DNA of 64,000 bases from Cetorhinus maximus (lineage: Eukaryota). This document shows positions 1-64,000 of this stretch, piece after piece. Both the position numbers and the translations under genes were made by a program. The stretch spans positions 24,614,001 to 24,678,000 of the forward strand of contig NC_135888.1 in assembly GCF_964194155.1 (NCBI RefSeq), written 5' to 3'. The number at the start of each line of letters is the position of its first letter. Positions within the stretch are counted from its first letter, which is position 1. A model generated the notes under the pieces. That model did no database searches, had not been told where the DNA came from, and saw nothing but the letters and a program-made list of their open reading frames with translations.

Positions 1-1010
1 TGTGTGGGACCCGTACCCCATTGAGAGTCAGTGTGTGTGGGACCCGTACCCCAGTGAGAGTCAGGTGTGTGAGACCCTTATCTGAGTGAGAGTCAGTGTG
101 TGTGGCACCCGTACCCGCATGAGAATCAATGTGTGTGGAACTCGTAACCCAGTGAGAGTCAGTGTGTGTGGTACCCGTTAGCCAGTAAGGGTCAGTGTGT
201 GTGGGACCCGTACCCCAGTGAGAGCCAGTGTGTGTGGGACCCATACCCCAGTGAGAGCCAGTGCGTGTGGAACCCGTACCCAGTGAGAGCCAGCGTGTGT
301 GGGACCCGTACCCCAGTGAGAGCCAGTGTGTGTGGAACCCGTACCCCAGTGAGAGTCAGTGTGTGTGGGACCCGTAACCCAGTGAGAGTCAGGGTGTGTA
401 GCACCTGTACCCCAGTGAGAGTCAGTGTGTTTGGGACCCATACCCCAATGACAGCCAGTGTGTGTGGGACCCATACTCCAATGACAGCCAGTGTGTCTGG
501 GACCTGTACCCCAGTGAGAGTCAGTGTGTGGAACCCGTTAGCCAGTGAGAGCCAGTGCATGTGGAACCCGTACCCCAGTGAGAATCAGTGTGTCTGGGAC
601 CCATACCCCAGCGAGAGCCAGTGTGTGTAGCACCTGTACCCCAGTGAGAGTCAGTGTGTGTGGGACCCATACCCCAATGACAGCCAGTGTGTGTGGGACC
701 TGTACTCCAGTGACAGTCAGTGTGTGGAACCTGTTAGCCAGTGAGAGTCAGTGTGTGTGGGACCCGTACCCCAGTGAGAGCCTGAGTGTGTGGACCCGTA
801 ACCCAGTGAGAGTCAGTGTGTGTGGAACCCGTACCCCAGTGAGAGTCAGTGTGTGTGGGACCCGTAACCCAGTGAGAATCAGTGTGTGTGGGACCCGTAC
901 TCCAATGAGAGTCAGTGTGTGTGGGACCCGTACTCCAATGAGAGTCAGTGTGTGTAGGACCTGTACCCCAGTGAGAGTCAGTGTGTGTGGGGCCTTTAAC
1001 CCAGTGAGAG
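1..1010. repeat. 33-bp minisatellite (GTGAGAGTCAGTGTGTGTGGGACCCGTACCCCA)n, in a MED22 intron
   Basis: About 30 tandem units with (GT)n length variants; explains the 11-aa-periodic ORFs at 166-1060. Confidence 0.95.
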
Positions 1011-1071
1011 TTATTTAAAAAAAAACTACCAAGAGAAAGAATGGGGTGCGTTTGACCCACCCGCTACTTAC

Positions 1072-1152
1072 AATGTTTGCTGCTCTAACATGCATCTCAT
1101 AGTGATCTTGTTCACACTGAGTTGCACGGGATACCTGCGTCTCATCTTCAAC
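1072..1152 (-). CDS. MED22: Mediator subunit 22, second coding exon ([27 protein letters not shown]); remaining exons lie left of the window
   Basis: TTTACAG acceptor, GTAAGT donor, 81 nt in phase 0; matches recalled human [27 protein letters not shown]. Confidence 0.95.
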
Positions 1153-1419
1153 CTGTAAAACAAGATTCTGATGAACATTTAGGATCAGCATCTTAGGAAC
1201 TTCACATCAAACCTCTGACCACTTTGCAAATGCGGATGGTTCTGTTTGCTCATTGTGTAGCTCAGGAAACCGAGTGAAGTGGATACAGCAACAGCAGGAG
1301 GATGTTCAGCTCTTCAACCCTGTTCCCCATTTTATCACATCATGGCTGATCTGCACCTCAACTCCAATAACCCACCTTGGTTCCATATAGACTTACAGCC
1401 TTACCCAACAGATTCAGAA

Positions 1420-3180
1420 ATCTTTGGAAAGATTAGACAAGCTGGGATTGCTCTCCTTACAGCAGAGAAGGTTAAGTGGAGATTTAACTGAAGTGTTCAA
1501 AATTATGAAGGATTCTGACACAGTAAATAAGGAAAAACTGTTTCCAGCAGTAGGAGGGTCAGTAACCAGAAGATACAAGTTTAAGGCAATTGACAGATTC
1601 TTTTACCCAGTCAGTTATGATGATCTAGAAGGCACTGCCTGAAAGGGTGATGGAAGCAGACTTAATAGTAATTTTCAAAAGGGATTAGAATAAATACTTG
1701 AAAGGAAAAATGTGCAGGGCTAAGGGGAAAGGGCAGGGGAACCAGCATTAGCAAGGTGGAGCGAATATTTAACAAGATATTTTAATTTTTTTTGTCAAAC
1801 ATTGTGGAGAGAAAGATTTTACCGAGAGTTCTAGTCTCTATTGTAAAATGGATATGGGGCATCAGTAAAGGCGCAATAAAGATCTATAAGGATACAAGAA
1901 TTGAAACGTTATATCCATCAGAGCGTGAACAGGGTGGGTCTACTTTCTCTTGAAAAGAGGAGGCTGATAGGTGACCTGATGGAAGTCTGTAAAATTATGA
2001 AAGGGTTCAATAGGATAGATGTGGAGAAATGTTTTCAATTGTGGATGAGACCAGAATTAGGATACATCAAAATAGGATAGTCTCTAATGAATCATTTTGG
2101 GAATTCAGGAGAAACCTCCTTATCCAGAGAGGGGTGAGAATGTGGAACAACCACAGGGAGTAATCGAAGCAAATACTGTTTAAGGGGAAGCTGGATAAAC
2201 ACACGAGGGAGAAAGGAATAGAAGGATATGCTGATAAAGTGAGGTGAAGAGGAGTGGGAGGAGGCTCGTGTGCAGCATAAACACCAGCACGGACCAGTCG
2301 GGTTGAATGGCCTGTTTCTGTGCTGTAAAATTCAATGTAACTTATTCTTTCTTTATTGCCTGGGCTTTCAGTGTCATCTGGGCGGAGGGGAGATGGAGGA
2401 GGGAGAGTCTCACACTGAGCTAGCGGATTGGAATATGGGGCAGTAAGCAACAGAAGATTAATGACCACAGGGGTTTGAAACTCTGACTCCAGTCAGTGCA
2501 GGTGGGGGGTGGAGTTTGTGGGGAAACAGTGGAAGGGGAACGATGAACAGCATCAATACCCTGAGTTAGACATGTCAAGGTTCCTACTTCTGATCACCAC
2601 CCACCTCACCATTGGTTAAACATCACGCTGGGAAGGAGGCGTAGAAGTTAAGTTAATAAAACTGCTGATTGACTTTGTTGCTGTGGTTCACATCCAATAA
2701 CTCGAGCGCTGGAAAATTGAATGTGCAGCACTTGAAGTATTTTTTCCATCCAAGTAACAGTATTTAGGCAAACAGTGGAACTCTTTGGGGAAGGGTACAT
2801 ATGAACATACAAATTAGGAGGAGTAGGCCACTCGCCCTTCAACCCGCTCCGCAATTCAATAAGATCATGGCTGATCTGATTGTAACCTCAACCCCACATT
2901 CCTGCCTACCCCCAATAACCTTTCACCCCCTTGCTTATCAAGAATCTATCTCGCTCTGCTTCAAAAATATTCAAAGATTCTGCTTCCACTGCCTTTTGAG
3001 GAAGAGAATTCCAAAGACTCATGACCCTCAGAGAAAAAATTTCTCCTCATCTCTGTCTTAAATGGGCGACCCATTTTTAACCAGTGACCCCTAGTTCTAG
3101 ATTCTCCTACAAGAGGAAACATCCTCCACATGGACAATTTCACATTTGCCCACATTATACCCCATTTGCCAGGTTTTTGC
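1420..3180. mobile_element. Cluster of CR1 LINE 3' fragments (about 1420-1745 +, 1880-2340 +, 2800-3180 -)
   Basis: RLDKLGLLSLQQRRLSGDL-type ORF2 C-terminal peptides and CR1 3' UTR tails. Confidence 0.8.
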
Positions 3181-3354
3181 CCAGGGAGTGGTGGAGGTCG
3201 AAATGTTCAAGCTTACCGGTGAAAGAGGATGGGGTTACCGTTATGGAGATGTGAGAAATCAGAGCCCTTGTCATGGGATTTCTTCTCCATGTTATTTCTT
3301 ACCTCCACCCTTATGGATTCTACATCTTCTGATCCAAGTACGATAGCAAGAAAT

Positions 3355-7290: not shown

Positions 7291-7424
7291 ATTGTGAAAA
7301 CCTAAAATGTTGAAATCTATACATCCAGAGTTTGGGATCCTAGTTTGCAATCAACAATTTAGTCAGAAAGTTGTGCATTCAAGTTGCACTCCAGGGAGTT
7401 AAACACAGAAACCTGGCACACATT

Positions 7425-8246
7425 CAGAGTGCAGTGCTGAGGGAGTGCCGCACTGTCGGAAGGTCAGTACTGAGAGAGTGCAGCACTGTCGGAGGGTCAG
7501 TACTGAGGGAGTGCTGCACTGTCGGAGGGTCAGTACTGAGAGAGTGCAGCACTGTCGGAGGGTCAGTACTGAGGGAGTGCTGCACTGTCGAAGGGTCAGT
7601 ACTGAGGGAGTGCTGCACTGTCAGAAGGTCAGTACTGAGGGAGTGCTGCACTGTTGGAGGGTCAGTACTGAGGGAGTGCTGCACTGTCGGAGGGTCAGTA
7701 CTGAGGGAGTGCTGCACTGTCGGAGGGTCAGTACTGAGGGAGTGCCGCACTGTCGGAGGGTCAGTACTGAGGGAGTGCTGCACTGTCGGAGGGTCAGTAC
7801 TGAGGGAGTGCTGCACTGTCGGAGGGTCAGTACTGAGGGAGTGCTGCACTGTCGGAGGGTTAGTACTGAGGGAGTGCTGCACTGTCGGTGGGTCAGTATT
7901 GAGGGAGTGCTGCACTGTCGGAGGGTCAATACTGAGGGAGTGCAGCACTGTCGGAGGATCAGTACTGAGGGAGTGCAGCACTGTCGGAGGGTCAGTACTG
8001 AGGGAGTGCTGCACTGTCGGAGGGTCAGTACTGAGGGAGTGCAGCACTGTCGGAGGGTCAGTACTGAGGGAGTGCTGCACTGTCGGAGCGTCAGCACTGA
8101 GGGAGTGCTGCACTGTCGGAGGGTCAATACTGAGGGAGTGCAGCACTGTCGGAGGGTCAGTACTGAGGGAGTGCTGCACTGTCGGAGGGTCAGTACTGAG
8201 GGAGTGCTGCACTGTCGGAGGGTCAGTACTGAGGGAGTGCTGCAGT
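7425..8246 (+). repeat. 33-bp minisatellite (CAGTACTGAGGGAGTGCTGCACTGTCGGAGGGT)n grown from a SINE body
   Basis: About 25 tandem units, preceded by SINE-like sequence at about 7380-7430. Confidence 0.95.
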
Positions 8247-8419
8247 GTTTTGCATGCAATTTGCGCACGGGAAGATCCCACAAAAAAGCGACATTATGGT
8301 AAAGGATTACGTTACTTTTTATTGATGGGAGACCCTCCCCCCGCGTCTTGTTTGCAATGAACCTCACGATCCTTTAATAATAATGAAAATAGAAAATGCT
8401 GGAAATACTCTGCAGGTCT

Positions 8420-17491: not shown

Positions 17492-19282
17492 CATTTGACC
17501 AAGTGTGGCATTAAGGAGCCCTAGCAAAACTGAAGTCAATGGGAATCAGGGGGGAAGCTCTCCACTGGTTGGAGTCATGCCTAGCACAAAGGAAGATGGT
17601 TGTGGTTGTTGGAGGTCTGTCATCTCAGCTCCAGGACATCACTGCAGGAGTTCCACAGGGTAGTGTCCTAGGCCCAACCATCTTCAGCTGCTTCGTTTTT
17701 AAAATGTATTTATTTGTTTATGGCATGTGGGCATTGCTGGCTAGATCAGCATTTATTGCCCATCCCTAATTGCCCTTGTTCAGGGGCCATTAAGAGTCAA
17801 CCACATTGCAATGGGTCTGGAGTCACATGTAGGTCAGACCTGGTGAGGCTGCCAGATTTCCTTCCCTAAAGGACATTAGTGAACCAGATGGGTTTTTACA
17901 GCAATCAACAATGGTTTTATGGTCAGCAGGGGCTGTTTGCTAGTGCTGTCGGGGAGGGTTTAAACTAGAATGGCAGGGGGATGGGAACCTGAGCAGGGAG
18001 ACAGAGGAGGGGGAAACAAGGATAGAAGCGAAAGACAGAAAAGAAGCAAAAGTGAAAAGCAGAAAAAACAAGGGTGAAAAACAAATAGGGTCATAGTGCA
18101 AAATAAAACTAAGATGACTAACAAGGTTAAAAAGACAAGTCTAAAGGCATTGTATCTTAATGCATGGAGCATTCACAATACAGTAGATGAATTAACAGCG
18201 CAAATAGATATAAACGGTTATGATATTGTTGCAATTACAGAGACATGGCTGCAGGGTGACCAAGGATGGGAACTGAACATCTAGGGGTATTCAATATTTA
18301 GGAAGGACAGACAAATAAGGAAAGGAGGTGGGGCAGCATTGTTAACAAAGGCGGGAATCAATGCAATGGTGAGGAAGGATATAGGCTCAGAAAATTATGA
18401 TGTAGAATCTGTTTAGGTGGAGATAAGAAACACCAAGGGGCAGAAAACATTGGTGGGAGTTGTCTATAGGCCCCCAAACAGTAACGGAGATGTAAGGGAA
18501 GGCATTAAAAAAGAAATTAGAGATGCATGCAAAAAGGGTACAACTGTAATCATGGGTGACTTTAATCTGCATATAGATTGGACAAACCAAACTAGCAATA
18601 ATACTGTGGAGGAGGATTTCCTGGAGTGTGTATGTGATGGTTTTTTAGACCAATACGTTGAGGACCAACTAGAGAGCAGGCTATCCTAGACTGGGTATTG
18701 TGCAATGAGAAAGGATTAATTAACCATCTTGTTGTGCGGGGTCCCTTGGGGAAGAGCGACCATAAAATGATAGAATTGTCCATTGAGATGGAGAGTGAAG
18801 AAATTGAATCCAAAACTAGGGTCCTGAATCTAAATAAAGGGAACTATGAGGGTATGAGGCGCGAGTTGGCAATGATGGATTGGGGAACCTTACTAAAAGG
18901 GGTGACGGTGGATAGGCAATGGCTAATATTTAAGGAATGTATGCAGCCTCAACCATGGATTACAAAATAAATTAGGGATAGTATTAGATCCAAAGAGGAG
19001 GCATATAAAATTGCCAGAAAAAGCAGCAAACTTGAGGATAGGGAGCAGTATAGAATTCAGCAAAAGTGGACAAAAATATTGATCAAGAAGGGGAAAATGG
19101 AGTGAGAGTAAACTTGCAGGGAACATAAAAACTGACTGTAAAAACTTCTATAAATATGTGAAGAGAAAAAGAATAGCAAGCACAAATATAGGTCCCTTAC
19201 AGTCAGAAACGGGGGGAAATTATAATGGGGAACAAAGAAATGGCAGAAGAATTGAACACATATTTTGGTTCTGTCTTCACAA

Positions 19283-21449: not shown

Positions 21450-21922
21450 TGCAATATTTCCAAGTTTGCTGATGACACAAAACTGGGCAGGATTGTGAGG
21501 AGGATGCAAGGAGGCTTCAGGGCAATTTAGACAAGTTGTATGTGTGGGCAAACAATGCCAGATGCAGTACAATGTGGATAAGTGTGAAGTTTACACTTCG
21601 ATGTGGAAAACAGAAAGGCAGAGTATTATTTAAATAGTGATATATTGGGAAATGTGGATGTACAAAGGGATCTGGGTGTCCCCGTATCAATCAATGTAAG
21701 TGAACAGGCAGGTGCAACAAGCAATTAGGAAGGCAAATGGTATGTTGGCCTTCATTGCAAGAAGATTTGAGTTCAGAAGTAGAAATGTCTTACTGCCGTT
21801 ATACAAGGCCTTGTGAGACCGCACCTGGAGTATTATGTGCAGTTTTGGTCTCCCTACCTAAGAAAGGATATACTTGCCATAAAGGGAATGCAGCAAATGT
21901 TCACTAGGCTTATACCGGGGAT

Positions 21923-23074
21923 TACCTGGAAAAACTCAGCAGGTCTGGCAGCATCGGCTGAGAAGAAAAGAGTTGACGTTTCGAGTCCTCATGACCTTCA
22001 ACAGAACTGAGTAATATTAGGAGAGGGGTGAAATATAAGCTGGTTTAAGGTGGGGCGGGGGGAGAGAAGTTGGGGTGGGGGGGTAGTTGTAGGGACAAGC
22101 AAGCAGCGATAGGAGCAGATAGTCAAAAGATGTCACAGACAAAGGAACAAAGAGGTGTTGAAGGTGGTGATATTGTCTAAACGAATGTGCTAATTAAGAA
22201 TAGATGGCAGGACACTCAAGGTACAGCTCTAGTGGGGGTGGGGTGGAAAGACTAACAGGGCATTAAAGGTGTAGATTTAAAAATAATGGAAATAGGTGGG
22301 AAAAGAAAAATCTATATAAATTATTGGAAAAAACAAAAGGGAGGGGGAAGAAACGGAAAAGGGGTGGGGATGGAGGAGGGAGTTCAAGATCTAAAGTTGT
22401 TGAATTCAATATTCAGCCCGGAAGGCTGTAAAGTGCCTAGTTGAAAGATGAGGTGCTGATCCTCCAGTTTGCGTTGGGCTTCACTGGAACAATGCAGCAA
22501 GCCAAGGACAGACATGTGGGCAAGAGAGCAGGGTGGAGTGTTAAAATGGCAAGTGACAGGGAGGTTTGGGTCTTTCTTGCGGACAGACCGCAGGTGTTCT
22601 GCAAAGTGGTCGCCCAGTTTACGTTTGGTCTCTCCAATGTAGAGGAGACCGCATTGGAAGCAACGAATGCAGTAGACTAAGTTAGGGGAAATGCAAGTGA
22701 AATTCTCCACTAGAGCTGTACCTTGAGTGTTCTGGCATCCATTCTTAATTAGCACATTCGTTTAGATAATATCACCACCTTCAACGCCTCTTTGTTCCTT
22801 TGTCTGTGACATCTTTTGATTATCTGCTCCTATCACTGCTTGCTTGTCCCTACAACCACCCCCCCCCAAACTTCTCTCCCCTCTCCCCCCCCCCCCACCA
22901 CCTTAAACCAGCTTATATTTCAACCCTCTCCTAATATTACTCAGTTCTGTTGAAGAGTCATGAAGACTCGAAACATCAGCTCTTTTCTTCTCCGCCGATG
23001 CTGCCAGACCTGCTGAGTTTTTCCAGGTAATTCTGTTTTTGTTTTGGATTTCCAGCATCCGCAGTTTTTTGTTT
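21923..23074. mobile_element. Fold-back PLE (GIY-YIG C-terminus plus 3' UTR, with an inverted 3' UTR copy)
   Basis: About 310-bp inverted arms (21922-22236 / 22705-23030); TSD TTATACCGGGGAT; VYCIRCFQCGLLYIGET peptide. Confidence 0.9.
21971..22008 (-). ncRNA. Minimal type I hammerhead-like motif (CUGUUGA variant, GUC triplet)
   Basis: AGUU-CUGUUGA-AGGUCAUGAGGACUC-GAAAC-GUC-AACU; inverted partner at 22943-22981 (+). Confidence 0.65.
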
Positions 23075-24639
23075 TTATACCGGGGATGGCAGGACTGTCA
23101 TATGAGGAGAGATTGGTTCGACTGAGCCTGTATTCACTAGAGTTTAGAAGAATGAGGGGGGATCTGATTGAAACATATAAAATTCTAACAGGACTAGACA
23201 GACTAGATGCAGTGAGGATGTTTCCCCTGATTGGGTAGTCTAGAACCAGGAGCAACAGTGTCAGGATACGGGGCAGGCCATTTAGGACTGAGATGAGGAA
23301 AAATTTCTTCACTCAGACGGTGGTCAACCTATGGAATTCTCTACCACAGAAGGCTGTGGAGGCCGGGTCACTGAGAATATTCAAGAAAGAAATTGATAAA
23401 TTTTTTGGATATTAGGGGCATCAAGGGGTATTGGAGAGAAAGCAGGAATATGGTGTTGAGATAGAGGATCAGCCATAATCATATTGAATGGTGGAGCAGG
23501 CTCAAAGGCCTACTCCTGCTCCTAGTTTCTAACAGACTTTTAATTCCAAATTTTTATTGAATTCAAATTTCACCATCTGCCATGGTGGGATTTGAACCTG
23601 GGTCCACAGAGCATTATCCTGGGTCTCTGGATTACTAGTCCAGTGACAATACCACTATAATGACAATGCCACTATGCCACCACCTCCCCCTCCATCAGAA
23701 GGTCAAAAGTGGGATGTTGGCTGATGATTGCACAATATTCAGCACCATCCACACGTTCTCAGATACTGAAGTAGCCCGTGCCCATCTGCAGCAAGACTTG
23801 GGCAACATTTTGGCTTGGGTTGATAAGTGGCAAGTAACATTCGTGCCACACAAGTGCCAGGCAATGACCATCTCCAACAAGATAAAATTAAACCAGCTCC
23901 CCTTGACATTCAAAGGCATTACCATCACTGAATCCCCCACTATTAACATCCTTGGGATTACCATTGGCCAGAAACTGAACTGGACTAGCCATATAAATAC
24001 AGTGGCTACAAGAGGAGGTCGGAGGCTGGGAATTCTGTGGCAAGCAACGCACCTCCTGACTCTCCAAAGCCTGTCCACCATCTACAAGGCACAAGTCAGG
24101 AGTGTGATAGAATACTCCTCGCTTGCCAGGATGAGTGCAGCTCCCACAACACTCAAGAAGCTTGACACCATCCAAGACAAAGCAGCCCGCTTGATTGGCA
24201 CCCCATCCACAAACACTGACGCACAGTGACAGCAGTATTTACCACCTACAAGATGCACTGCAGAAACTCACCAAGGCTCCTTAGACAGCACCTTCCAAAC
24301 CCACGACTGCTACCATTAAAAGGACAAGGGCAGCAGATACAAGAGAACACCACCACCTGGAAGTTCCCCTCCAAGCCACTCACCACCCTGAATTGGAAAT
24401 ATATCGCCTTTCCTTCACTGTCACTGGGTCAAAATCCTGGAACCCCCTCCCTATGAGCACTGTGGGTGTACCTACACCACATGGACTGCAGCGGTTCAAG
24501 AAGGCAGTTCACCATCACCTTCTCAAGGAGCAATTAGGGATGGGTAATAAATGCTGATTTTGCCAGCAACACCCATATCCCGTGAACGAATAAATAAAAA
24601 TAGATGCGCATTGAATGACCTCCTTAGTGCCATAAATCT

Positions 24640-27060: not shown

Positions 27061-30000
27061 CCATAGACAAAGGGACAAAGGGGTGTTGACGGTGGTGATA
27101 TTATCTAAAGGATGTGCTAATGGGGACTTTAAAGGTAGCAAGCAGGACAAGCTAGTGGCAAATGGCCCTAGTGTGGGTGGAGTGGGGGGAAGGGATCAAA
27201 ATGGGCTAAAAGGTGGAGATGAAACAATAGATCGAAATAAATTTAAAAATAGGTGGGAAAAGAAAAATATATTTGTAAAAAAATTATAAATTATTGGAAA
27301 AAAGGGGGATCGGAAAGGGGGTGGGGATGGAGGAGATAGTTCATGATCTGAAATTGTTGAACTCAATATTAAGTCCGGAAGACTGTTAAGTGCCTCGTCG
27401 GAAGATGAGGTGCTGTTCCTCCAGTTTGCGTTAAGCTTCACTGGAACATTGCAGCAGGCCAAGGACGGACATGTGGGCATGAGAGCAGGGTAGTGTGTTG
27501 AAATGGCAAGCGACAGGGAGGTCTGAGTCATGCTTGTGGACAGACCGAAGGTGTTCCGCAAAGCGGTCACCCAGTCTGTGTTTGGTCTCTCCAATGTAGA
27601 GGAGACCACAGTGGGAGCAGCGAATGCATTAGACTAAATTGAGGGAAGTGCAAGTGAAATGCTGCTTCACTTGAAAGGAGTGTTTGGGCCCTTGGACGGT
27701 GAGGAGAGGGGAAGTAAAGGGGCAGGTGTTGCACTTTCTGCGGTTGCATGGGAAGGTGCCGTGGGAGGGGGTTGAGGTGAAGGGGGTGATGGAACAGTGG
27801 ACCAGGGTGTCCCGGAGGGAACGATCCCTGCGGAAAGCCGCCGGGGGGGGTGAAGGGAAGATGTGTTTGGTGGTGACATCATGCTGGAGTTGGAGTAAAT
27901 GGTGGAGGATGATCCTTTGAACGCGGAGGCTGGTGGGGTGATAAGTGACTTATGAACACACTCAACCTCTCCCTCCAGCAGCACCGACGCACCCTATTTC
28001 TAAACTGTCCTTGCCCCCAGTTTCATTTTATTCTTCGTCTCATCCGATGCCTCAACAAGAAACTTTGTCTCTTTCTTTCAGATGCAAAGGAACGCAAGCT
28101 CCAACAACTCATCGACACCAATACCCATCCAGGACCCTCCACCCCTGCCTGCCCCCATCCCGTCTTCCAATCCCAGCCCCAGCCGTGTATTCACTATACC
28201 CCCTGACCTTCCCCTCTCTGATGTTGAATGTTCAGTACTCAGTGAAGGACTCAGTTTCATACCCTTATGCCCTCACTTCAATGAATTTCGGGCTCGGCAC
28301 GATGCTGAACTCTTCTTCCGCTGCCTTCGTCTCCGTGCTCACTTCTTTGGGCAGGAGTCCTCTCCCTGTTCAAAGGATCTTTTTACCCACCTCCAATATT
28401 CTCCCTCCACCTGGACCCTTCCCTCTGGATTTTTACCTGCTCTTGATCTTTTCATTGAGAACTGTCAGCGCGACATCAGTCATCTCAATTTCTCTGCTCC
28501 TCTCACCCACTCTAACCTGTCTCCTTCTGAACTTGATGTACTCTGTTCTCTCAGGTCCAACCCTGACTTTGACATCAAACCTGCTGACAAGGGTGGTGCT
28601 GTTGTTGTCTGGCGCACTGACCTCTACCTGGCAGAAGCTGAGTGTCAACTCGCAGACACTTCCTCCTCCCTCCCCCTGGACCATGACCTCACCACTGAAC
28701 ATCAAGCCATTGTTTCCAGGACTGTTACTGACCTTATGTCCTCTGGAGATCTTCCTTCCACAGCTTCCCTCAGTTTCCCAACCTCGGACGGCCTGCTTCT
28801 ACCTCCTACCCAAAATCCACAAACAGGACTGTCCCGGTAGACCGATCATGTCAGCCTGTTCCTGCCCCACGGAACTCATTTCTTGCTATCATGACTCCAT
28901 TCTCTCTCCCCTTGTCCAGTCTCTTCCCACCTACATCCGCGATTCCTCTCATGCCCTACATCATATCAACAATTTCCAGTTCCCTGGCCCCAACCGCCTC
29001 CTCTTTACCATGGACGTCCAATCCCTCTACACCTCTATCCCCCACCAGGATGGTCTGAGGGCTCTTCGCTTCTTCCTCGAACAGAGACCCGAACAACCCC
29101 CATCCACCACTACTCTCCTCCATCTGGCTGAACTTGTTCTCTCACTGTACAATTTCTCCTTAAACTTGTCTCACTTCCTCCAAATAAGCGGTGTGGCTAT
29201 GGGTACCTGCATGGGCCCCAGTTATGCCTGTCTCTTTATGGGGTATGTGGAACATTCCTTATTCCAGTCCTACTCAGGCCCCCTCCCACAACTCTTTCTC
29301 CGGTACTTCAATGACTGCTTCGGTGCTGCTTCATGCTCTCGTCTGGATCTGGAAAACTTTATTAATTTTGCTTCCAATTTCCACCCCTCCATCATTTTCA
29401 CATGGTCCATCACTGTCACTTCCCTTCCCTTCCTTGACCTCTCAGTCTCAATTTCTGGTGATAGACTGTCCACCAATATTCATTACAAGCCTACCAACTC
29501 CCACAGCTACCTCGATTACAGCTCCTCACACCCCGCTTCCTGTAAGGACTCCATCCCATTCTCTCAGCTCCTTCGCCTCCGTCGCATCTGTTCTGATGAT
29601 GCCACTTTCCAAAACAGTTCTTCTGACATGTCTTCCTTCTTCCTTAACTGAGGTTTTCCACCCACGGTGGTTGACAGGGCCCTCAACTGTGTCTGGCCCA
29701 TCTCCCACGCATCTGCCCTGACACCTTCCTCTCCCTCCCAGAACCATGATAGGGTCCTCCTTGTCCTCATTTATCACCCCACCAGCCTCCGTGTTCAAAG
29801 GATCATCCTCCGCTATTTCCGCCAACTCCAGCATGATGCCACCACCAAACACATCTTCCCTTCACCCCCCCCAGTGGCTTTCCGCAGGGATCGAACCCTC
29901 CAGGACACCCTGGTCCACTCCTCCATCACCCCCTACACCTCAACCCCCTCCCAAGGCACCTTCCCATGCAACCGGAGAAGGTGCAACACCTGCCCCTTTA

Positions 30001-30892
30001 CTTCCCCTCTCCTCACCGTCCAAGGGCCCAAATACTCCTTTTAAGTGAAGCAGCGCTTCACTTGCACTTCCCTCAATCTAGTCTACTGCATTCGCTGCTC
30101 CCAATGCGGTCTCCTCTACATTGGAGAGACCAAACGCAGACTGGGTGACCGCTTTGTGGAACACCTTCGGTCTGTCCACAAGCATGACCCAGGCCTCTCT
30201 GTCGCTTGCCATTTCAACACACCACCCTGCTCTCATGCCCACATGTCCGTCCTTGGCCTCCTGCAATGTTCCAGTGAAGCTTAACGCAAACTGGAGGAAC
30301 AGCACCTCATCTTCCGATGAGGCACTTAACAATCTTCCGGACTTAATATTGAGTTCAAAAATTTCAGATCATGAACTCTCTCCTCCATCCCCACCCGCTT
30401 TCCAATCCCCCTTTTTCCAATCATTTATAATTTTTTAACAAATATATTTTTCTTTTCCCACCTATTTTAAAATTTATTTCGATCTATTGTTTCATCTCCA
30501 CCTTTTAGCCCATTTTGATCCCTTCCCCCCGCCCCACCCCCACTAGGGCCATCTGCCACTAGCTTGTCCTGCTTGTTACCCTTTATGTCCCATTAGCAAA
30601 TCCTTTAGATAATATCACCACCGTCAACACCCCTTTGTCCTTTTGTCTATATCTTTGGCAGTCTCTTCTTGGCCTCCACCTATCACTGGCCCCCTATCGA
30701 GCTTCACCTGTCCTACCCCCCTCTACCAGCTTATATTTCATCTCATTTCTATATTTTTTAGTTCTGATGAAGGGTCATACGGACTCGAAATGTTAACTGT
30801 ATCCCTCTCTGCAGATGCTGTCAGACCTGCTGAGTTTTTCCAGGTATTTTTGTGCTTGTTCTAGATTTCCAGCATCCGCAGTATTTTGCTTT
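27061..30892 (+). mobile_element. Large Penelope-like element (Neptune-type RT plus GIY-YIG) with an inverted copy of its 3' part at the 5' end
   Basis: RT motifs in ORF 27945-29651; CNRRRCNTC Cys cluster; NLVYCIRC..YIGET endonuclease; 27061-27944 is the reverse complement of about 29770-30650; TSD TATTCCAATAT(C/G)GATA. Confidence 0.93.
30760..30798 (+). ncRNA. Minimal type I hammerhead motif in PLE 3' UTR
   Basis: AGUU-CUGAUGA-A-GGGUC-AUACG-GACUC-GAAAU-GUU-AACU: both core boxes, stem II and stem I present. Confidence 0.75.
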
Positions 30893-35509: not shown

Positions 35510-35830
35510 AGGAATAAAGAAAGATTTGCTTTAATATATTCTTTAATGAGTTCAGAACACCCATAGCATTTCATAGCCAATGAAGTGCAGGCACTACTAT
35601 AATGTGGGGAAAAGGCAGCCAACTTGCAAATAGCAAGATCCCACAAACAGCAATGAGATAAATGACCAGATATTCTGTTTCTAGTGATGTTGATTGAAGG
35701 ATAAATATTGACCTTTGAGAACACTCCTGCTCTCCTTCAAAGTAGTAGCTGGGGGGTCCTTTATATCCACCTGAGCGAGCAAATTGGACTTTGGTTTAAC
35801 ATTAAATCGGCAAGACAGCCTCTCCGACAG
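35510..35830 (-). mobile_element. Deu-domain/SacSINE1-like SINE body (second copy about 47630-48128)
   Basis: Shared body (GCAGCCAA..TGCA..AGATCCCA.AAACAGCA...ATGACCAGAT); tRNA-like head in the 48030-48128 copy. Family name from memory. Confidence 0.65.
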
Positions 35831-36712
35831 TGCAGCACTCCCTCATTACTGACCCTCCGACAGTGCAGCGCTCCCTTATTACTGACCCTCCGACAGTGCA
35901 GCACTCCCTCGGTACTGACCCTCCGATTGTGCAGCACACCCTCAGTACTGACCCTCCGACAGTGCTGCACTCCCTCATTACTGACCCTCCGACAGTGCAG
36001 CACTCCCTCAGTACTGACCCTCCGACAGTGCAGCACTCCCTCAGTACTGACCATTGGACAGGGCAGCACATCCTCAGTCCTGACCCTCCGACAGTGTAGC
36101 ATCTCCCTCATTACTGACCCTCCGGCAGCGCAGCGCTCCCTCGGTACCAACCCTCTGACAGTGCAGCACTCCCTTGGTACCCTCCCTCCAAACGTGCAGC
36201 ACTCCCTCAGTACTAACCATTGAACAGGGCAGCGATCCTCAGTACTGACCCTCTGACAGTGCAACACTCCCTCATTACTGACCATTGGACAGGGCAGCGC
36301 ATCCTCAGTACTGACCCATCAACAATGTAGTGCTCCCTCAGTACTGACTCTCTGACAGTGCAGCACTCCCTCAGTACTGACCCTCCGACAGTGCAGCATT
36401 CCCTCAGTACTGACCCTCCGACAGTGCAGCACTCCCTCAGTACTGACCCTCCGACAGTGCAGCACTCCCTCAGTACTGACCCTCCGACAGTGCAGCACTC
36501 CCTCAGTACTGACCCTCCGACAGTGCAGCACTCCCTCAGTACTGACCCTCCGACAGTGCAGCACTCCCTCAGTACTGACCCCCCGACAGTGCAGCACTCC
36601 CTCAGTACTGACTCTCCGACAGTGCTGCGCTCCCTCAGTACTGACCCTCCGACAGTGCAGCGCTCCCTCAGTACTGACCCTCCGAGAGTGCACCCTCAGT
36701 ACTGACCCTCCT
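35822..36712 (-). repeat. 33-bp minisatellite, same family as 7425-8246, in DNLZ intron 1
   Basis: About 27 units of ACTGACCCTCCGACAGTGCAGCACTCCCTCAGT. Confidence 0.95.
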
Positions 36713-36893
36713 GAAAAGTGTGCCTGTTGGTGCCCCCGGGAGTCTCTCTATTGAGTTTGTCTTTAAACCAATATTGATTTTTATCATTTTGATTGGTTGA
36801 TGTAGAAGCGACTGATCAGATCATTCCTTGTGAAGGGGAGAGAGATGCAGATGGAGCCGGGGCCTGAAGCTGGTCCCAGAGCCGGGGCCTCAC

Positions 36894-40409: not shown

Positions 40410-40752
40410 TCTGCAGTAGTGGTCTGGTGACACTGGTTCAAATCCCACCACGGCATTTACAACTCAATTATTAAATCTGTAGTCTAAAGCTAGCCTGAGT
40501 AATGGTGATCATGAAACTATCAAAGTTTGTTTTAAAAACTCACCTGGTTCACTTAACATCCTTTAGGGAAGGAAATCTTGCCTTCCTTACCCGCTCTGGC
40601 CTACATGTGACTCCAGACCCACAGCAATGTGGTTGACTTAGCTGCCTGCTGAAATGTCCTAGCAAGCCAATAGCTAGGGCTATTAGGGATGAGCAACAAA
40701 TGCTGGCCTGGCCAGTGACACCCACATCCCATGTAGGAATGTAAAAATAAAT
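40410..40752 (+). mobile_element. HE1-like tRNA-derived SINE in RPL7A intron 1
   Basis: B box GGTTCAAATCC, conserved body, tail matching the HER1-like LINE 3' end. Confidence 0.82.
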
Positions 40753-40864: not shown

Positions 40865-40985
40865 CCGAAGGGGAAGAAAGCCAAGGGGAAGAAGGTGGCC
40901 CCGGCTCCTTCTGTCGTAAGGAAGCATGAGGTGAAAAAGGTCGTGAACCCTCTGTTTGAGAAGAGACCCAAAAACTTTGGGATTG
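40865..40985 (+). CDS. RPL7A: 60S ribosomal protein L7a, exon 2
   Basis: [15 protein letters not shown]...KRPKNFGI; AG/GT boundaries. Confidence 0.98.
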
Positions 40986-41388
40986 GTGAGTTCAGGAATC
41001 TGAAAACTGCAATGAGCATGATTCAACTGTGAATCAGCAACTGCATTGGTGAAGAAAGCTTTCCTCAAAATTGATGCTACTGTTTAAAAAATAATAGCTT
41101 TGGGTTTATCCTATCAAGTGGCCCTTCCTCCATATTGAGGCTTGATTGTTTGAGTTTGATGATCATTCTGGTAGTGTAATATTAACACACTTGATGGGGA
41201 TCCAGTTTTTTCAGGTTCATATTGTCTTAAGTCCTTGTAAGGGAGAAGTTGTGGGAAACTAGCAGTAATGAGGTTGCAGGTGTTGGAGATCTGAAACAGG
41301 AAGTGCTGGAAAGCCCAGCAGTTCAGTCAATGGAGAGCGGGGAGTTAACTGAGGCACAGCGGCAAATCTTACAGATTAGTGGTGTTAA

Positions 41389-49063: not shown

Positions 49064-50060
49064 ACCTGTGCTGTTCCTGGGAGTGTTTGATGAGGACAGC
49101 GTAGAGGGAGCTTTACTCTGTATCTAACCCCGTGCTGTACCTGCCCTGGGAGTGTTTGATGGGGACAGTGTAGAGGGAGCTTTACTCTGTATCTAACCCT
49201 GTGCTGTACCTGTCCTGGGAGTGTTTGATGGGGACAGTGTAGAGGGAGCTTTACTCTGTATCTAACCCCGTGCTGTACCTGTCCTGTGAGTGTTTGATGG
49301 GGACAGTGTAGAGGGAGCTTTACTCTGTATCTAACCCCGTGCTGTACCTGTCCTGGGAGTGTTTGATGGGGACAGTGTAGAGGAAGCTTTACTCTGTATC
49401 TAACCCCGTGCTGTACCTGTCCTGTGAGTGTTTGATGGGGACAGTGTAGAGGGAGCTTTACTCTGTATCTAACCCCGTACTGTACCTGCCCTGGGAGTAT
49501 TTGATGGGGACAGTGTAGAGGGAGCTTTACTCTGTATCTAACCCCGTGCTGTACCTGTCCTGGGAGTGTTTGATGGGGACAGTGTAAAGGGAGCTTTACT
49601 CTGTATCTAACCCCGTACTGTACCTGCCCTGGGAGTGTTTGATGGGGACAGTGTAGAGGGAGCTTTACTCTGTATCTAACCCCGTACTGTACCTGCCCTG
49701 GGAGTATTTGATGGGGACAGTGTAGAGGGAGCTTTACTCTGTATCTAACCCCGTGCTGTACCTGTCCTGGGAGCGTTTGATGGGGACAGTGTAGAGAGAG
49801 CTTTACTCTGTATCTAACCCCGTGCTGTACGTGCCCTGGGAGTATTTGATGGGGACAGTGTAGAGGGAGCTTTACTCTGTATCTAACCCCGTGCTGTACC
49901 TGTCCTGGGAGTTTTTGATGGGGACAGTGTAGAGGGAGCTTTACTCTGTATCTAACCCCGTGCTGTACCTGTCCTGGGAGTTTTTGATGGGGACAGTGTA
50001 GAGGGAGCTTTACTCTATATCTAACCCCATGCTGTACCTGTCCTGGGAGTGTTTGATGGG
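49064..50060. repeat. 69-bp minisatellite, about 14 copies, in SURF1 intron 5
   Basis: (GGGAGTGTTTGATGGGGACAGTGTAGAGGGAGCTTTACTCTGTATCTAACCCCGTGCTGTACCTGTCCT)n. Confidence 0.96.
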
Positions 50061-51004: not shown

Positions 51005-52485
51005 TTGGATGGGCTCCCCCATCATTGAGGATGGGGATATTTCTGGACTCTCCTCCTCCAGTGAGTTGTTTAATTGTCCATCACCATTCATGACTGGATG
51101 TGGCAGGACTCCAGAGCTTAGATCTGAACCGTTGGTTTTAGGATCGCTTAGCTCTGTCTATCACTTACTGCTTTTGCTGTTTGGCACACAAATAGTCTTG
51201 TGTTATAGTTTCACCTGGTTGACACCTCATTTTTAGGTATGCCTGGTGCTGCTCCTGGCATGCCCTCCTGCACTCTTCATTGAACCAGGGCTGATCCCCT
51301 GGCTTGGTGACAATGGTAGAGTGGGGGATATGCCAGGCCATGAGGTTACAGATTGTGGTCAAGTACAATTCTGCTGCTGCCGATGGCCCACAGTGCCTCA
51401 TGGATGCCTAATTTTGAGTTGCTAGATCTGTTTAAAATTTATCCCATTTAGCACGGCAGTAGTGCCACACAATATGATGGAGGATATCCTCAATGTGAAG
51501 GCGGGACTTCGTCTCCACAAGGACTGTGCGGTGGTCTCTCCTACTGATACCGTCATGGACAGATGCATCTGTTACAGGCAGGTTGGTGAGGATGAGGTCA
51601 ATTATATTTTTCCCTCTTGTTGGTTCCCTCACCACCTCCTGCAGACCCAGTCTAGCAGCTATGTCCTTTCAGACTCAGCCAGCTCGGCATCTAATGGTGC
51701 TACCGAGCCACACTTGGTAATGGACATGCAAGTCCCCCACCCAGAGTGCATTCTGTGCCCTTGCCACCCTCAGTGCTTCCTCCAATTGGTGTTCAACATG
51801 GAGGAGCACTGACTCATCAGCTGAGCGAGGGCGGTATGTGGTAATCAACAGGAGGTTTCCTTGCCCATGTTTGACCTGATGCCATGAGGCTTCATGGGTC
51901 CGGAGTCAATGCTGAAGATGTCCAGGGCAACTCCCTCCTGACTGTATACCGCTGTGCCGTCACCTCTGTAAGGTATGATTCCGTGAGTGTGACTATGTCA
52001 GACAGTGTGACAGCTCTCCCTATTTTGGCACAAGCCCCCAGATGTGAGTCAGGAGGACTTTGCTGGGTTGACAGGGCTGAGATTTCCGTTGTCATTTCCG
52101 GTGCCTCGGTCAATGCTGGGTGGTCCGTCTGGTTTTGTTCCTTTCTGTAGACTCTGTCGTGGTTTAATACAACTGAGTGGCTTGCTCACCCATTTCAGAA
52201 GACAGTTAAGAGTCAACCACATTATTTTGAGTCAGGAGTCACATGTGGGCCAGACCAGGTGAGGACGACAGATTTCCTTCCCTAAAGGGCAATAGTGAAC
52301 CAGATGGGTTTTTACAACAATCATCAATGGTTTCATAGTCACTATTACCGAGACTAGCTTTTTATCTCCAGATTTATTAACTGAATTTAAATTCCAACAG
52401 ATTCAAACCCACGTTTCCACAGCGTTAGCTTGGGCCTCTGGATTACTAGTCCAGCGACAATACCACAACGCCATTGTCTCCCCCT
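51005..52485 (-). mobile_element. 5' half of a HER1-like LINE with tRNA-derived head
   Basis: Head GGGGAGACAATGGCGTTGTGG...GGTTTGAATC, SINE-like body, then DIVTLTESYL and EPTRGKNIIDLILTN endonuclease motifs. Confidence 0.85.
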
Positions 52486-53504: not shown

Positions 53505-53849
53505 CTGAGAGAGGGGAAAAAACCGGAAAGATTTAAAAGGGCTCAACACCAGGGTTTTCTGTGGGCCCCACCAATACCACTGCTGATGTCTCCCTTTCAC
53601 AGTGACTCCATGCTTAATTCGAGACACACATTTCAGAAGGACAGGATTCAGCCCATTCTGCAGTGCTGGCTCTTTGAAAAAGCTATGCAATTACATAACA
53701 AATCTGACCAGGCCAGAACATTAAATGCAGCAAGAATCCAAAAAATTGAGACATTCAGCCTGTCTGATAAATTTAATCTGAATTACAAGGGGCCCTAGTG
53801 GCAGAGTCTTATTCAGTGACAAATCTGTATTCATGAGTTCTATTTCCCA

Positions 53850-55525
53850 GTGCAAAAGATAAGGCCAAATCATTTGCAACCATCTTCAGCCAGAAGTGCC
53901 GAGTGGATGATCCATCTCAGCCTCCTATGGAAGGTCCCCAGCATCACAGATGCCAGTCTTCAACCAATTCGATTCACTCCACATGATATCAAGAAACGGC
54001 TGAAGGCACTGGATACTGCAAAGGCTATGGGGCCTGACAATATCCCGGCCGTAGTACTGAAGACTTGTGCTCCAGAACTTACCGCGCCCCTAGCCAAGCT
54101 GTTCCAGTACAGCTATAACACTGGCATCTACCCGGCTATGTGGAAAATTGCCCAGGTGTGTCCTGTACACAAAAAGGACAAACCCAACTCGGCCAATTCC
54201 TGTCCCATCAGTTTACTCTTGATCATCAGTAAAGTGTTGGAAGGGGTCATCAACAGTGGTATCAAGCGGTATTTACTCAGCAATAACCTGATCACTGACG
54301 TGCAGTTTGGGTTCCGCCAGGGTCACTCAGCTCCTGACCTGATTACTGCCTTGGTTCAAACATGGACAATAGAGCTGAACTCCAGAGGTGAGGCAAGAGT
54401 GACTGTCCTTGACATCAAGGCAGCATTTGACCGAGTGTGGCATCAAGGAGCCTTAGCAAAACTGGAGTCAATGAGAATCAGGGGAAACCTCTCCATTGGT
54501 TGGAGTCATACCTAGCACAAAGGAAGATGGTTGTGGTCATTGGAGGTCAATCACCTCAGTTGCAGGACATCACTGCAGAAGTTCCTCAGGGTAGTGTCCT
54601 TGGTCCAACCATCTTCAGCTGCTTCATCAATGACCTTCCTTACATCATAAATTCAGAAGTGGGGATGTTCGCTGATGATTGCACAATGTTCAGTACCATT
54701 CGCGACTCCTCAGATACTGAAGCCGTCCATGTCCAAATGCAACAAGACCTGGACAATATCCAGGCTTGGGCTGACAAGTGGCAAGTAACATTTGCGTCAT
54801 ACAAGTCCCAGGCAATGACCATCTCCAACAAGATAAAATTAAACCGGCTCCCCAATCCCCCACAATCAACATCCTGGGGGTTGCCATTGACCAGAAGCTG
54901 AACTGGACTAGCCATATAAATACTGTGGCTACAAGAGCAGGTCAGAGGTTAGGAATAGTACAACGAGAACCCACCTGACTCCCCAAAGTCTGTCCACCAT
55001 CTACAAAGCACAAGTCAGGAGTGTGATGGGATACTCCCCATTTGCCTGGATGAGTGCAGCTCCCACAACACTCAAGGAGTTCGACATCATCCAGGATAAA
55101 GCAGCCCCGCTTGATCGGCACCACATCCACAAACATTCACTCCCTCCACCACCGACACACAGTAGCAGCAGTGTGTACCATCTACAAGATGCACTGCAGC
55201 AACTCACCAAGGCTCCTTAGACAGCACCTTCCAAACCCACAACTGCCTCCATCTGGACGTACATGGGCAGCAGACAGATGGGAACACCACCACCTGGAAA
55301 TTCCCCTCCAAGCCACTCACCATCCTGACTTGGAAATATATCATCGTTCCTTCACTGTCACTGGGTCAAAATCCTGGAACTCCCTCCCTAACAGCACTGT
55401 GGGTGTACCTACACCACATGGACTGCAGCGGTTCAAGAAGGCAGCTCACCACCACCTTCTCAAGGGCAAATAGGGATGGGCAATAAATGCTGGCCTAGCC
55501 AGTGAAGCCCATGCCTACTGAATGA
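53850..55525 (+). mobile_element. HER1-like LINE RT and 3' end in SURF1 intron 1
   Basis: GPDNIP, QFGFR, LDIKAAFDRV, VPQGSVLGP and FADD motifs. Confidence 0.92.
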
Positions 55526-58307: not shown

Positions 58308-61085
58308 AGGGGAGGCGATGGTGTAGCGATATTATCGCTAGTGTGGCGATATTATCGCTAGACTAGTAATCCAAAGACTGAGGTTAATGCTCTGGGGACC
58401 CGGGTTCGAATCCTGCCATGGCTGATGGTGGAATTTAAATTGAATAAAAATCTGAAATTAAAAGTCTGATGATGATGGTTCACTACTGCCCCTTTAGGGG
58501 GCCTGGCCTACATGTCACTCCGGACCCCCCATGGCAATGTGGTTGACTCTTAAATGGCCTCATATGTAACAAACTGCTTCCTGAAGCTGGACAGACCACC
58601 TGGCATCGACCTAGGGACTGGATCTCAGTGAATCAGTGCTCCTCCACTTGAACACCACTTGGAGGGAGCACTGAGGGTGGCAAAGGTGCAGAATGGATTC
58701 TGGGTGACTTCAATGTCCATCACCAAGAGTGGCTCGGTAGCAGGCCCAGCCCTAAAGGGCATAGCAGTTAGACTGGGTCTGCGGCAGGTGGTGATGGAAA
58801 AACATGCTTGACCTCGTCCTCACCAACCTGACTGCCGCAGATGCATCTGTCCGTGACAGTATCAATGGAATGACCTCTGTACAGTCATTGTGGAGATGAA
58901 GTATCACCTTCACACTGAGGGTACACTCCATCGTGTTGTGTGGCACTACCATCGTGCTAAATGGGATAGATTTCAAACAGATCTAGCAACTCAAGACTTG
59001 GTACCCGTGAGGCAATTGGCAGCAGCATTATACTCGAACACAATCTGTAACCTCATGGCTTGGCACATCCCCCATAACCATCAAGCCAGGGAATCCACCC
59101 TAGTCCAATGAAGATTGTAGGAGGGGATGCCAGGAGCAGCACCAGGCATACCTAAAAATGAGGTATCAACCTGGTGAAGCTATAACACAGGGCTACTTGT
59201 GTGCCAACCAGTATAAGCAGCAAGTGATAGACAGAGCTAAGCGATCCCACAACCAACAGATCAGATCTAAGCTCTGCAGTCCTGCCACATCCAGTCGTGA
59301 ATGGTGGTGGACAATTAAACGACTCATGAGGAGGAGGCTCCACAAATATTGGCATCCTCAATGATGGAGGAGCCCAGCAGAGCAGTGCAAAAGATAAGAC
59401 TAGAGCAGTTGCTACAATCTCCAGCCAGAAGTGCTGAGTGGATGATCCATCTCGCCCTCCTCAGGAGGTCCCCAGCATCACAGATGCCAGTCTTCAACCA
59501 ATTCGATTCACTCCACGTGATATCAAGAAACAGCTGAAGGCACTGGAAAGTGCAAAGGCCAAGGGGCCTGACAATATTCTGGCAATAGTACTGAAGACTT
59601 GTGCCCCAGAACTTGTCGCGCCCCTAGCCAAGCTGTTCCAATACAGCTACAACACTGGCATCTACCCGGCTATGTGGAAAATTGCCCAGGTATGTCCTGT
59701 ACACAAAAAGCAGGACGAATCCAACCCAGCCAATTACCACCCCATCAATCTACTTTCCATCATCTGTAAAGTGATGGGAGGGGTCATCAACAGTGCTATC
59801 AAGCACCACTTGCTTCACAATAACCTACTCACTGAGGCCCAGTTTGGGTTCTGCCAGGGCCATTCAGCTCCTGACCTCATTACAGCCTTGGTTCAAATAT
59901 GGACAAAAGAGCTGAGCTCCCGAGGTGAGGTGAGAGTGACTGCCCTTGACATCAAGGCCGCATTTGACCAAGTGTGGCATCAAGGAACCCTAGCAAAACT
60001 GGAGTCAACAGGAATCGGGGGAAAACTCTCTATTGGTTGGAGTCATACTTAGCACAAAGAAAGATGGTGGTGGTTGTTGGAGGTCAGTCATCTCAGCTCC
60101 AGGATATCACCGCACGAGTTCCTCAGGGTAGTGTCCTTGGCCCAACCACCTTCAGCTGCTTCATCAATGACCTGCCTTCTATCATAAGGTCAGAAGTGGG
60201 GATGTTCGCTGATGATTGTACAATGTTCAGCACCATTCGCGACTCCTCAGATACTGAAGCAGTCTATGTCCAAATGCAGCAAATGGACAACATCCAGGCT
60301 TGGGCTGACAAGTGGCAAGTAACATTCGCGCCACACAAGTGTCAGGCAATTACCATCTCCAGCAAGAGAGAATCCAACCATCTCCCCTTGATGTTCAATG
60401 GCATTACCAACACTGAATCCCCCACTATCAACATCCTGGGAGTTACCATTGACCAGAAACTGAACTGGACCAGCTTTATAAATACTGTGGCTACAAGAGC
60501 AGGTCAGGGGCTTGGAATCGTGCGACGAGTAACCCACCTCCTGACTCCCCAAAGTCTGTCCACCATCTACAAGGCACAAGTCAGGAGTGTGATGGAATAC
60601 TGCCCACTTGCCTGGATGAGTGCAGCTCCAACAACTCAAGAAGCTTGACACTGTCCAGGACAAAGCAGCCCACTTGATTGGCACCACATCCACAAACATT
60701 CAATCTCTCCACCACCGAAGCACAGTAGCAGCAGTGTGTACCATCTACAAGTTGCACAAGACTCCTTAGGTAGCAACTTCCAAACCCACAACCACTACCA
60801 TCTAGAAGGACAAGGGCAGCAGATAGACGGCAACACCACCACCTGGAAGTTCCCCTCCAAGTTACTCACCATCCTGACTTGGAAATATATCACCGTTCCT
60901 TCACTGTCGCTGGGTCAAAATCCTGGAACTCCCTTCCTAACAGCACTGTGGGTGTACCTACACCACATGGGCTCCAGCAGTTCAAGAAGGCAGCTCACCA
61001 CCACCTTCTCAAGGGCAACTAGGGATGGGCAATAAATGCTGGCCCAGCCTGTGGCGCCCACATCTCATGAATGAATTTTTAAAAG
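58308..61085 (+). mobile_element. Near full-length HER1-like LINE with tRNA-derived head and internal deletions
   Basis: A box-like TGGTGTAGCG, B box GGTTCGAATCC, GDFN endonuclease motif, RT ORFs 59438-60648, 3' tail. Confidence 0.9.
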
Positions 61086-63559: not shown

Positions 63560-64000
63560 CTTGAGTGTGTGTGAAACACGTACCCCAGTGAGAGTCAGTG
63601 AGTGTGAAACACGTACCCCAATGAGAGTCAGTGAGTGTGGGACCCGTACCCCATTGAGAGTCAGTGTTTGTGGAACACGTACCCCAATGAGAGTCAGTGA
63701 GTGTGAAACACGTACCCCAATGAGAGTCAGTGTGTGTGGGACCCGTACCCCATTGAGAGTCAGTGTATGTGGGACCCGTACCCCAGTGAGAGTCAGTGTG
63801 TGTGGGACCCGTACCTCAGTGAGAGTCAGTCTGTGTGGGACCCGTACCCCATTGAGAGTCAATGTGTGTGGGCCCCGTACCCCATTGAGAGTCAGTGTGT
63901 GTGAGACCCGTACCCCATTGAGAGTCAGTGTGTGTGGGACCTGTACCCCATTGAGAGTCAGTGTATGTGGGACCCGTACCCCAGTGAGAGTCAGTGTGTG
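63560..64000. repeat. 33-bp minisatellite, same family and orientation as 1-1010
   Basis: About 13 units running off the right edge. Confidence 0.95.

Follow-up and report, generated by a model that had tools for sequence, protein, structure and literature searches.

By the usual working rule, LINEs are RNA polymerase II (Pol II) mRNAs, and SINEs are noncoding RNA polymerase III (Pol III) RNAs that borrow the tail of a LINE. Several described systems come close to the elements reported here. Elasmobranch Zenon LINEs have been catalogued as ORF1-less elements with a poly-A tail (PMC13343379). In Lepidoptera, the short Persaeus elements (SIDEs) arose repeatedly from a 3.3-kb, single-ORF Zenon by deletion at microhomologies, and in the relevant sections they are stated to be without tRNA homology or a Pol III promoter, whereas the parent LINE of the sharks bears a tRNA head and its deletion products are true SINEs by structure (PMC6740152). 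In Bov-B/Bov-A/Bov-tA and in SINE2-1_ACar with Vingi, the body and the tail are the two ends of a LINE, as in the family described here, but the head of these bipartite SINEs was added after the deletion to a noncoding element, whereas here it sits on a coding one; as far as the cited sections go, the sources of such SINEs are only RTE and Vingi, and SINEs are stated to be unable to encode protein (PMC5786205). Finally, the V-SINE HE1 and its partner HER1 resemble the present family in that a tRNA-derived SINE and a CR1-group LINE of sharks and rays share a 3' tail, and differ from it in that HE1 is a V-SINE (PMC3747384).

The current study of a 64-kb stretch of the Cetorhinus maximus genome (contig NC_135888.1; in the following, "the window" is this whole stretch of 64,000 nucleotides) favors, with somewhat better than even confidence, an ORF1-less Zenon that begins with a tRNA-Thr-derived head, is likely transcribed over its full length by Pol III and has likely given rise to its SINEs by loss of the coding middle. 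The family is represented by a majority line of 3,282 nt, built from 39 long LINE copies, with a head (1 to ~95), a body of ~220 nt (to 315), a linker, an endonuclease (from 434) and a single ORF, ORF2, of about 930 codons (434 to 3225), followed by a 60-nt 3' UTR and an A-rich end; the individual copies end in a short A-rich run. The endonuclease domains PF14529 and PF03372 (Pfam) were found on the natural sister copy L039, and the one frame slip of the majority line, at a G-run, is read through in a natural copy. Every copy seen is dead, the best being about 93% identical to the majority line over its full length.

Two LINEs of the window align from the start of the majority line, as the original prediction of a SINE-like tRNA head on both had claimed. 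LINE A (58309..61085, + strand) is a decayed full-length Zenon-type LINE that runs from the head to the A-rich tail with private deletions; its alignment with the majority line covers 58309-61076, and the A-rich end follows. The tRNA-Thr(AGT)-derived head (58309..58425) has a decayed and locally duplicated A box and an intact B box (58403-58413). It is followed on the same strand by a remnant of the SINE-shared body with two deletions (58426..58566, majority ~96-315), what remains of the LINE-only linker that stretches from the SINE joint to the endonuclease (58567..58621), an ORF2 remnant with many stops and frameshifts that comprises the APE endonuclease without its start and then the reverse transcriptase (RT) (58629..61022, stop codon 61020-61022), and the 3' tail common to all SINE forms, which contains the last ORF2 codons and the A-rich end (61010..61085). 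The start of the endonuclease is gone because the private deletions include majority 389-756. The short run from head to endonuclease that had been read from these copies is thus partly private to LINE A, whereas a distance of about 120 nt between the SINE-shared region and the endonuclease is valid family-wide. LINE B consists of a 5' half with the H1 head variant (51010..52483, - strand, majority 1-1563) and an inverted 3' half (53848..55511, + strand, majority 1570-3266). It is a single full-length copy, longer than originally predicted. The break lies at majority 1563/1570 and the halves, on opposite strands, are 1.36 kb apart, which fits a local 2.8 kb inversion, or twin priming plus an insertion.

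The two SINEs of the window have the head and body of the LINEs, from which they jump to the last ~67 nt of the LINE, and they belong to different subfamilies with different joints. The first, of subfamily S1 (40410..40752, + strand), has an H1 head and a decayed 5' part; as predicted, it leaves the LINE sequence, after majority 315, and resumes at the 3' tail. The second, of subfamily S2, lies on the - strand with its head at 23534..23690 and its body and tail at 17697..17928 (H2 head type, joint after majority 292), and it is split by about 5.6 kb of later, nested insertions. At 23534-24591, its head adjoins, in a back-to-back arrangement, a 5'-truncated member of its own LINE family (23688..24591, + strand, majority 2362-3282), with an overlap of 2-3 nt. 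Directly downstream of the S1 SINE lies an exon (40868-40987) whose translation we take to resemble the start of ribosomal protein L7a. The window further contains repeats with a GIY-YIG-like endonuclease (21921-22710, 27062-27948 and 29767-30846), presumably Penelope-like elements, and tandem arrays with units of about 33 nt and 69 nt (1-1011, 63564-64000, 7370-8249, 35811-36726 and 49065-50060), the 33-nt kinds recurring at separate sites.

SINEs of this family are very abundant, and the window copies might be chance insertions in front of 5'-truncated LINEs whose real 5' end carries an ORF1. This reading is refuted, and we give it practically no weight. The 5' ends were sampled by means of a 20-nt motif at the endonuclease start, i.e., blind to whatever lies upstream: of its 3,858 exact matches the first 30 were taken, and they represent 29 independent copies, since L174 and L175 are duplicates. 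Upstream of the endonuclease, all 30 enter the same SINE-shared region, one of them for a mere 8 nt; the head is reached by 22, and the remaining 8 break off within the body. The start lies within 6 nt of position 1 in 15 of the 30. Neither an alternative 5' region nor a shared flank at a common position was found among them. The tRNA-derived head is accordingly the regular 5' end of the LINE family, and the predicted absence of ORF1 was confirmed, with only head, body and linker upstream of the endonuclease in the 30 sampled copies. The junction of the head region with the LINE is a single fixed one, with 4,821 exact matches to its motif and none to the reversed control, the SINE tail is absent before the linker, and the junction is identical in the consensus sequences of five species in the supplement of PMC13343379. 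The layout of head, body, linker, ORF2 and tail is therefore nearly certain to be family-wide.

The same junction is bridged in contigs of three organisms, with the same SINE joints; the host species may be among them. Zenon-type LINE pieces are also located inside gene models of Heterodontus, Heptranchias, Pristiophorus and Scyliorhinus. A coral-labelled metatranscriptome and another one contain the element from end to end, again with these SINE joints, and these copies are most likely shark nucleic acid in the samples, rather than evidence for other hosts or for transcription. The proposed check of the family had asked for an identical junction and for target site duplications (TSDs) enclosing head and LINE. 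The junction was borne out by the motif counts; the TSD test was uninformative because neither LINE nor SINE copies exceeded chance (1 of 21 full-length LINEs versus 29 of 420 control pairs; 7 of 51 full-length SINEs at score 7 versus 7.0% of control pairs).

The head of the majority line has an A box at 11 and a B box at 75. Its alignment with the genomic tRNA-Thr(AGT) gene, relative to which it carries a 20-nt insert, scored 52.8, versus a mean of 16.6 and a maximum of 36.8 in 1,000 shuffles. A head copy that has lost the insert (L144:1492-1563) was called tRNA-Thr(AGT) by ARAGORN. In the 64-kb window ARAGORN found 0 genes, and Rfam returned no tRNA match for the head of copy L052; both missed the head due to the insert and to decay. 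Covariation in the head was uninformative, with none of 20 base pairs compensatory in nine dead copies. Among 99 LINE copies, the head variant was H1 in 5 and H2 in 62, and 32 were unclassified. Seven of nine matches to a tRNA-like pattern were element heads, and these may swell the number of tRNA genes counted in such genomes.

Based on its sequence, the family is the elasmobranch Zenon of the CR1 group. Head and junction motifs were recovered in the supplementary rows of PMC13343379, the first 400 nt were compared by eye, and those of CarCar_Zenon-1 match the majority line almost base for base. In this supplement, seven consensus sequences from five shark and ray species (CarCar_Zenon-1, RhiTyp_Zenon-1, ScyCan_Zenon-1, SquAca_Zenon-1 to -3 and HypSab_Zenon-1) begin with the head, and the elements agree with ours in their length of about 3.28 kb, the single ORF, the absence of ORF1 and the A-rich tail (PMC13343379). 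The hagfish and coelacanth Zenons listed there have no such head in the first 400 nt, by eye, and the T4-or-longer-free start is not shared either, since EptBur_Zenon-1 and LatCha_Zenon-1 hold such runs within this stretch (PMC13343379). The main text contains none of the words "tRNA," "promoter" and "polymerase," and the supplement does not contain "tRNA"; in these parts, the account omits the head, the T-run loss and the SINEs described here (PMC13343379). The expectation of an undescribed architecture thus held only halfway: the head is already present in published consensus sequences, and it is unannotated there. In the open-access literature searched, no description of a tRNA-headed coding LINE was found. 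The family itself is known, and what has gone unremarked is the architecture of its 5' end.

The original prediction had placed the elements in the frame of HE1/HER1, where HER1 would presumably be the classical CR1 of this genome. The HE1/HER1 label is not supported, because the classical CR1 has another tail and forms a separate clade. In a quick RT tree, in which no labelled Zenon RT was included, the LINE groups with invertebrate-type relatives apart from classical CR1 (SH-aLRT 99). The tail of the classical CR1 resembles CR1-1_CM, by eye (PMC7245038 Fig. S5). A MetaSINE, suspected from the tRNA-Thr head, was also rejected, as the central domain is absent: no Meta, Deu or UCON3 domain was seen by eye in the body against the alignments of supplement 1 of PMC7245038, and motif searches gave 0 matches.

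Short forms composed of head and tail exist in at least five versions. S1 (H1 head) leaves the LINE after 315, and its joint has 5,000 exact matches; S2 (H2 head) leaves after 292, with 5,974; the reversed control gave 0 in either case. S3 (H2 head; 531 exact matches) has the exit after 315 in common with S1 and picks up the tail 2 nt earlier, at a TT microhomology. Of 4,308 matches to the gap pattern, the first 100 were sorted by eye into 59 S2, 38 S1-like and 3 S3. Differences between head variants aside, the S1 and S2 majority lines contain no bases absent from the LINE. In 80 further matches, LINE-only linker bases past 315 are retained to the left of the joint and ORF2 codons to the right; at least three classes of joint recur among them, and several joints are singletons. 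Among 25 of these rare linker-keeping forms (S4/S5) that were inspected, 7 extend into the first 40 nt of the head and three fit the 5' region poorly. The short forms carry an A/B-box tRNA head, are noncoding, share their 3' tail with a LINE and have been amplified as a unit, as is characteristic of SINE2 elements; they are also composed only of the 5' and 3' ends of one LINE, as is characteristic of SIDEs. Hundreds of contigs of three organisms exit the body at L178:637 (majority about 275) into A-rich sequence of low agreement, which is possibly a tail-less short form.

Since LINE-only bases flank their joint on both sides, the rare S4/S5 forms come from the headed LINE by internal deletion, and a deletion origin is shown for these junction classes. 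For the abundant S1 to S3, we infer the same: internal deletion is the simplest reading because they contain nothing that the LINE lacks and because the LINE junction has no tail remnant between body and ORF2 (its score is reached by 919 of 1,000 shuffles). The prediction that the SINE was born by deletion rather than by tail capture is hence established for the rare classes and inferential for the abundant ones; overall, we consider a deletion origin of the SINEs of this LINE probable. The tail breakpoints of S1, S2 and S3 lie no more than 2 nt apart, S2 and S3 join the newer head to the older tail type, and H1 and H2 heads are present in both LINEs and SINEs with mosaic tails, so that a single origin of S1 to S3 with exchange of heads also fits. 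These near-identical breakpoints and mosaics, together with the well-documented exchange of modules among SINEs (PMC4824008, as far as consulted sections go), are in line with the reverse order of events, in which a SINE of head and body first captured the Zenon tail and its 5' part was later passed on to the LINE through template switching, S1 to S3 descend from that SINE with swapped heads, and only S4/S5 are deletions. We regard this order as rather improbable. The switch would have to hit the exact boundary of body and tail and leave no tail remnant, the body does not, by eye, match the SINE domains named above, and the most diverged short forms sampled, S4/S5 (13% versus 7.5% mismatch), are those with LINE-only bases.

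The origin of the body bears on the same question. Body and linker show a weak collinear alignment (score 85) with the unheaded, native 5' UTR of a relative (L284:420-760); this score was matched by 1 of 500 shuffles and by 5 of 1,003 control windows, and that of the body alone by 48 of 500 shuffles. The alignment is contrary to a donor SINE and hints that only the tRNA part was captured, the body being native to the LINE. The body motif had 0 matches in metagenome contigs. Named relatives of L284 are from amphioxus, wrasse, brittle star, crab and anemone, and no ribozyme family was found in the 5' region of L284 and of three short loci.

A run of four or more T in the sense strand stops Pol III. 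The sense strand of the majority line has 6 T3 versus 21.6 expected, with 0 of 2,000 shuffles as low, and no T4 versus 4.4 expected (P 0.012). Shuffling of synonymous codons likewise left the observed T3 far below expectation (4 versus 12.8; 0 of 2,000 as low). The loss is present in both halves of ORF2, and neither A, C and G triplets nor pyrimidine tracts nor A-rich and C-rich windows are depleted. The CR1 control of the genome (30 copies) has 31 T3 versus 23.5 expected and 6 T4, and the observed/expected TTT ratios per copy do not overlap (0.20-0.60 in 39 LINE copies versus 0.97-1.36 in the 30 CR1). Compared with 53 control LINE ORFs, i.e., those of 80 related metagenome-contig loci with a stop-free frame of at least 500 codons, the value of this LINE (0.22) is below the lowest (0.36; median 1.04), and T4 is absent from 5 of the 53 as well. 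L284, the nearest intact relative (41.5% identity), has no A or B box, a value of 1.02 and seven T4 runs. The sole recurrent T4 site among the LINE copies is due to CpG decay. Dinucleotide shuffles were as low in 191 of 1,000 cases for T4, in 27 of 1,000 for T3 and in 6 of 1,000 for windows with four T in five, and the absence of T4 is weak by itself once the low TT content is allowed for. The T-run depletion is an indirect, Pol III-like signature, and the chance that the full-length LINE is transcribed by Pol III may be put at about even to slightly better.

LINEs are Pol II transcripts as a rule, and a head that is fixed but passive, either as part of the 5' UTR or beside a Pol II promoter, would leave Pol III to the SINEs only, with the LINE transcribed by Pol II from a promoter of its own or through read-through from the host. 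That possibility, which we hold to be a minority one, has in its favor that a capped RNA is easier to translate and that the T4 statistic is not significant versus dinucleotide shuffles. Kojima argues in addition for a possible conflict between the cis-elements of Pol II and those of Pol III (PMC5786205, in the sections concerned). What a Pol II transcript leaves unexplained is the T-specific loss of runs in both halves of ORF2, which is absent in CR1, L284 and the 53 controls, and the coincidence of the LINE and SINE 5' ends at a point 10 nt upstream of a perfect A box.

No in-frame AUG stands directly before the endonuclease on the majority line. One in-frame AUG, at 293, is separated from a stop by a single codon (AUG-GCC-UAG), an arrangement present in 6 of the 7 published elasmobranch consensus sequences (supplement of PMC13343379), and another AUG, at 349, overlaps the start of the endonuclease in a different frame. 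The frame of the endonuclease is itself extended by an arginine-rich stretch, and inspection by eye of the sequence from the AUG at 349 to this frame revealed no canonical slippery heptamer. At majority 317-319 (window about 58567-58570), just past the junction, a T/A variant interrupts the endonuclease frame with a stop in a sizeable minority of copies and in the Squalus consensus sequences of the supplement (PMC13343379), so that the start of translation is probably located further downstream. Translation from a Pol III RNA, which would lack a cap and contain 13 upstream AUGs, is left unexplained by the model.

The model itself, i.e., the Pol III-transcribed headed LINE with SINEs derived from it, would run as follows. 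An ancestral Zenon would have gained the tRNA head by template switching, and the head, as an internal promoter, would be retained by each full-length insertion. Selection would then strip oligo-T terminators across 3.3 kb, ORF2 would be made from the Pol III RNA by an unconventional start, and its product would copy its own RNA from the tail by target-primed reverse transcription. Any deletion from body to tail would keep both promoter and recognition tail and could thus yield a complete SINE in one step. The full proposition of a coding, autonomous Pol III retrotransposon, in effect a SINE with an endonuclease and reverse transcriptase of its own, maintained across sharks and rays, free of terminators over 3.3 kb, translated without a cap in a nonstandard manner and shedding SINEs by single deletions, appears to us evenly poised between true and false.

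With respect to the organization of these elements, the headed Zenon family straddles the rule that separates LINEs from SINEs and offers a one-step route of SINE birth whose stages are visible at many joints. If transcription by Pol III is true, the element would be a natural multi-kilobase Pol III mRNA, and its cap-independent, nonstandard initiation of ORF2 would be directly testable. For the annotation of shark genomes, the 5' end of this LINE is prone to being miscalled as a SINE or a tRNA.
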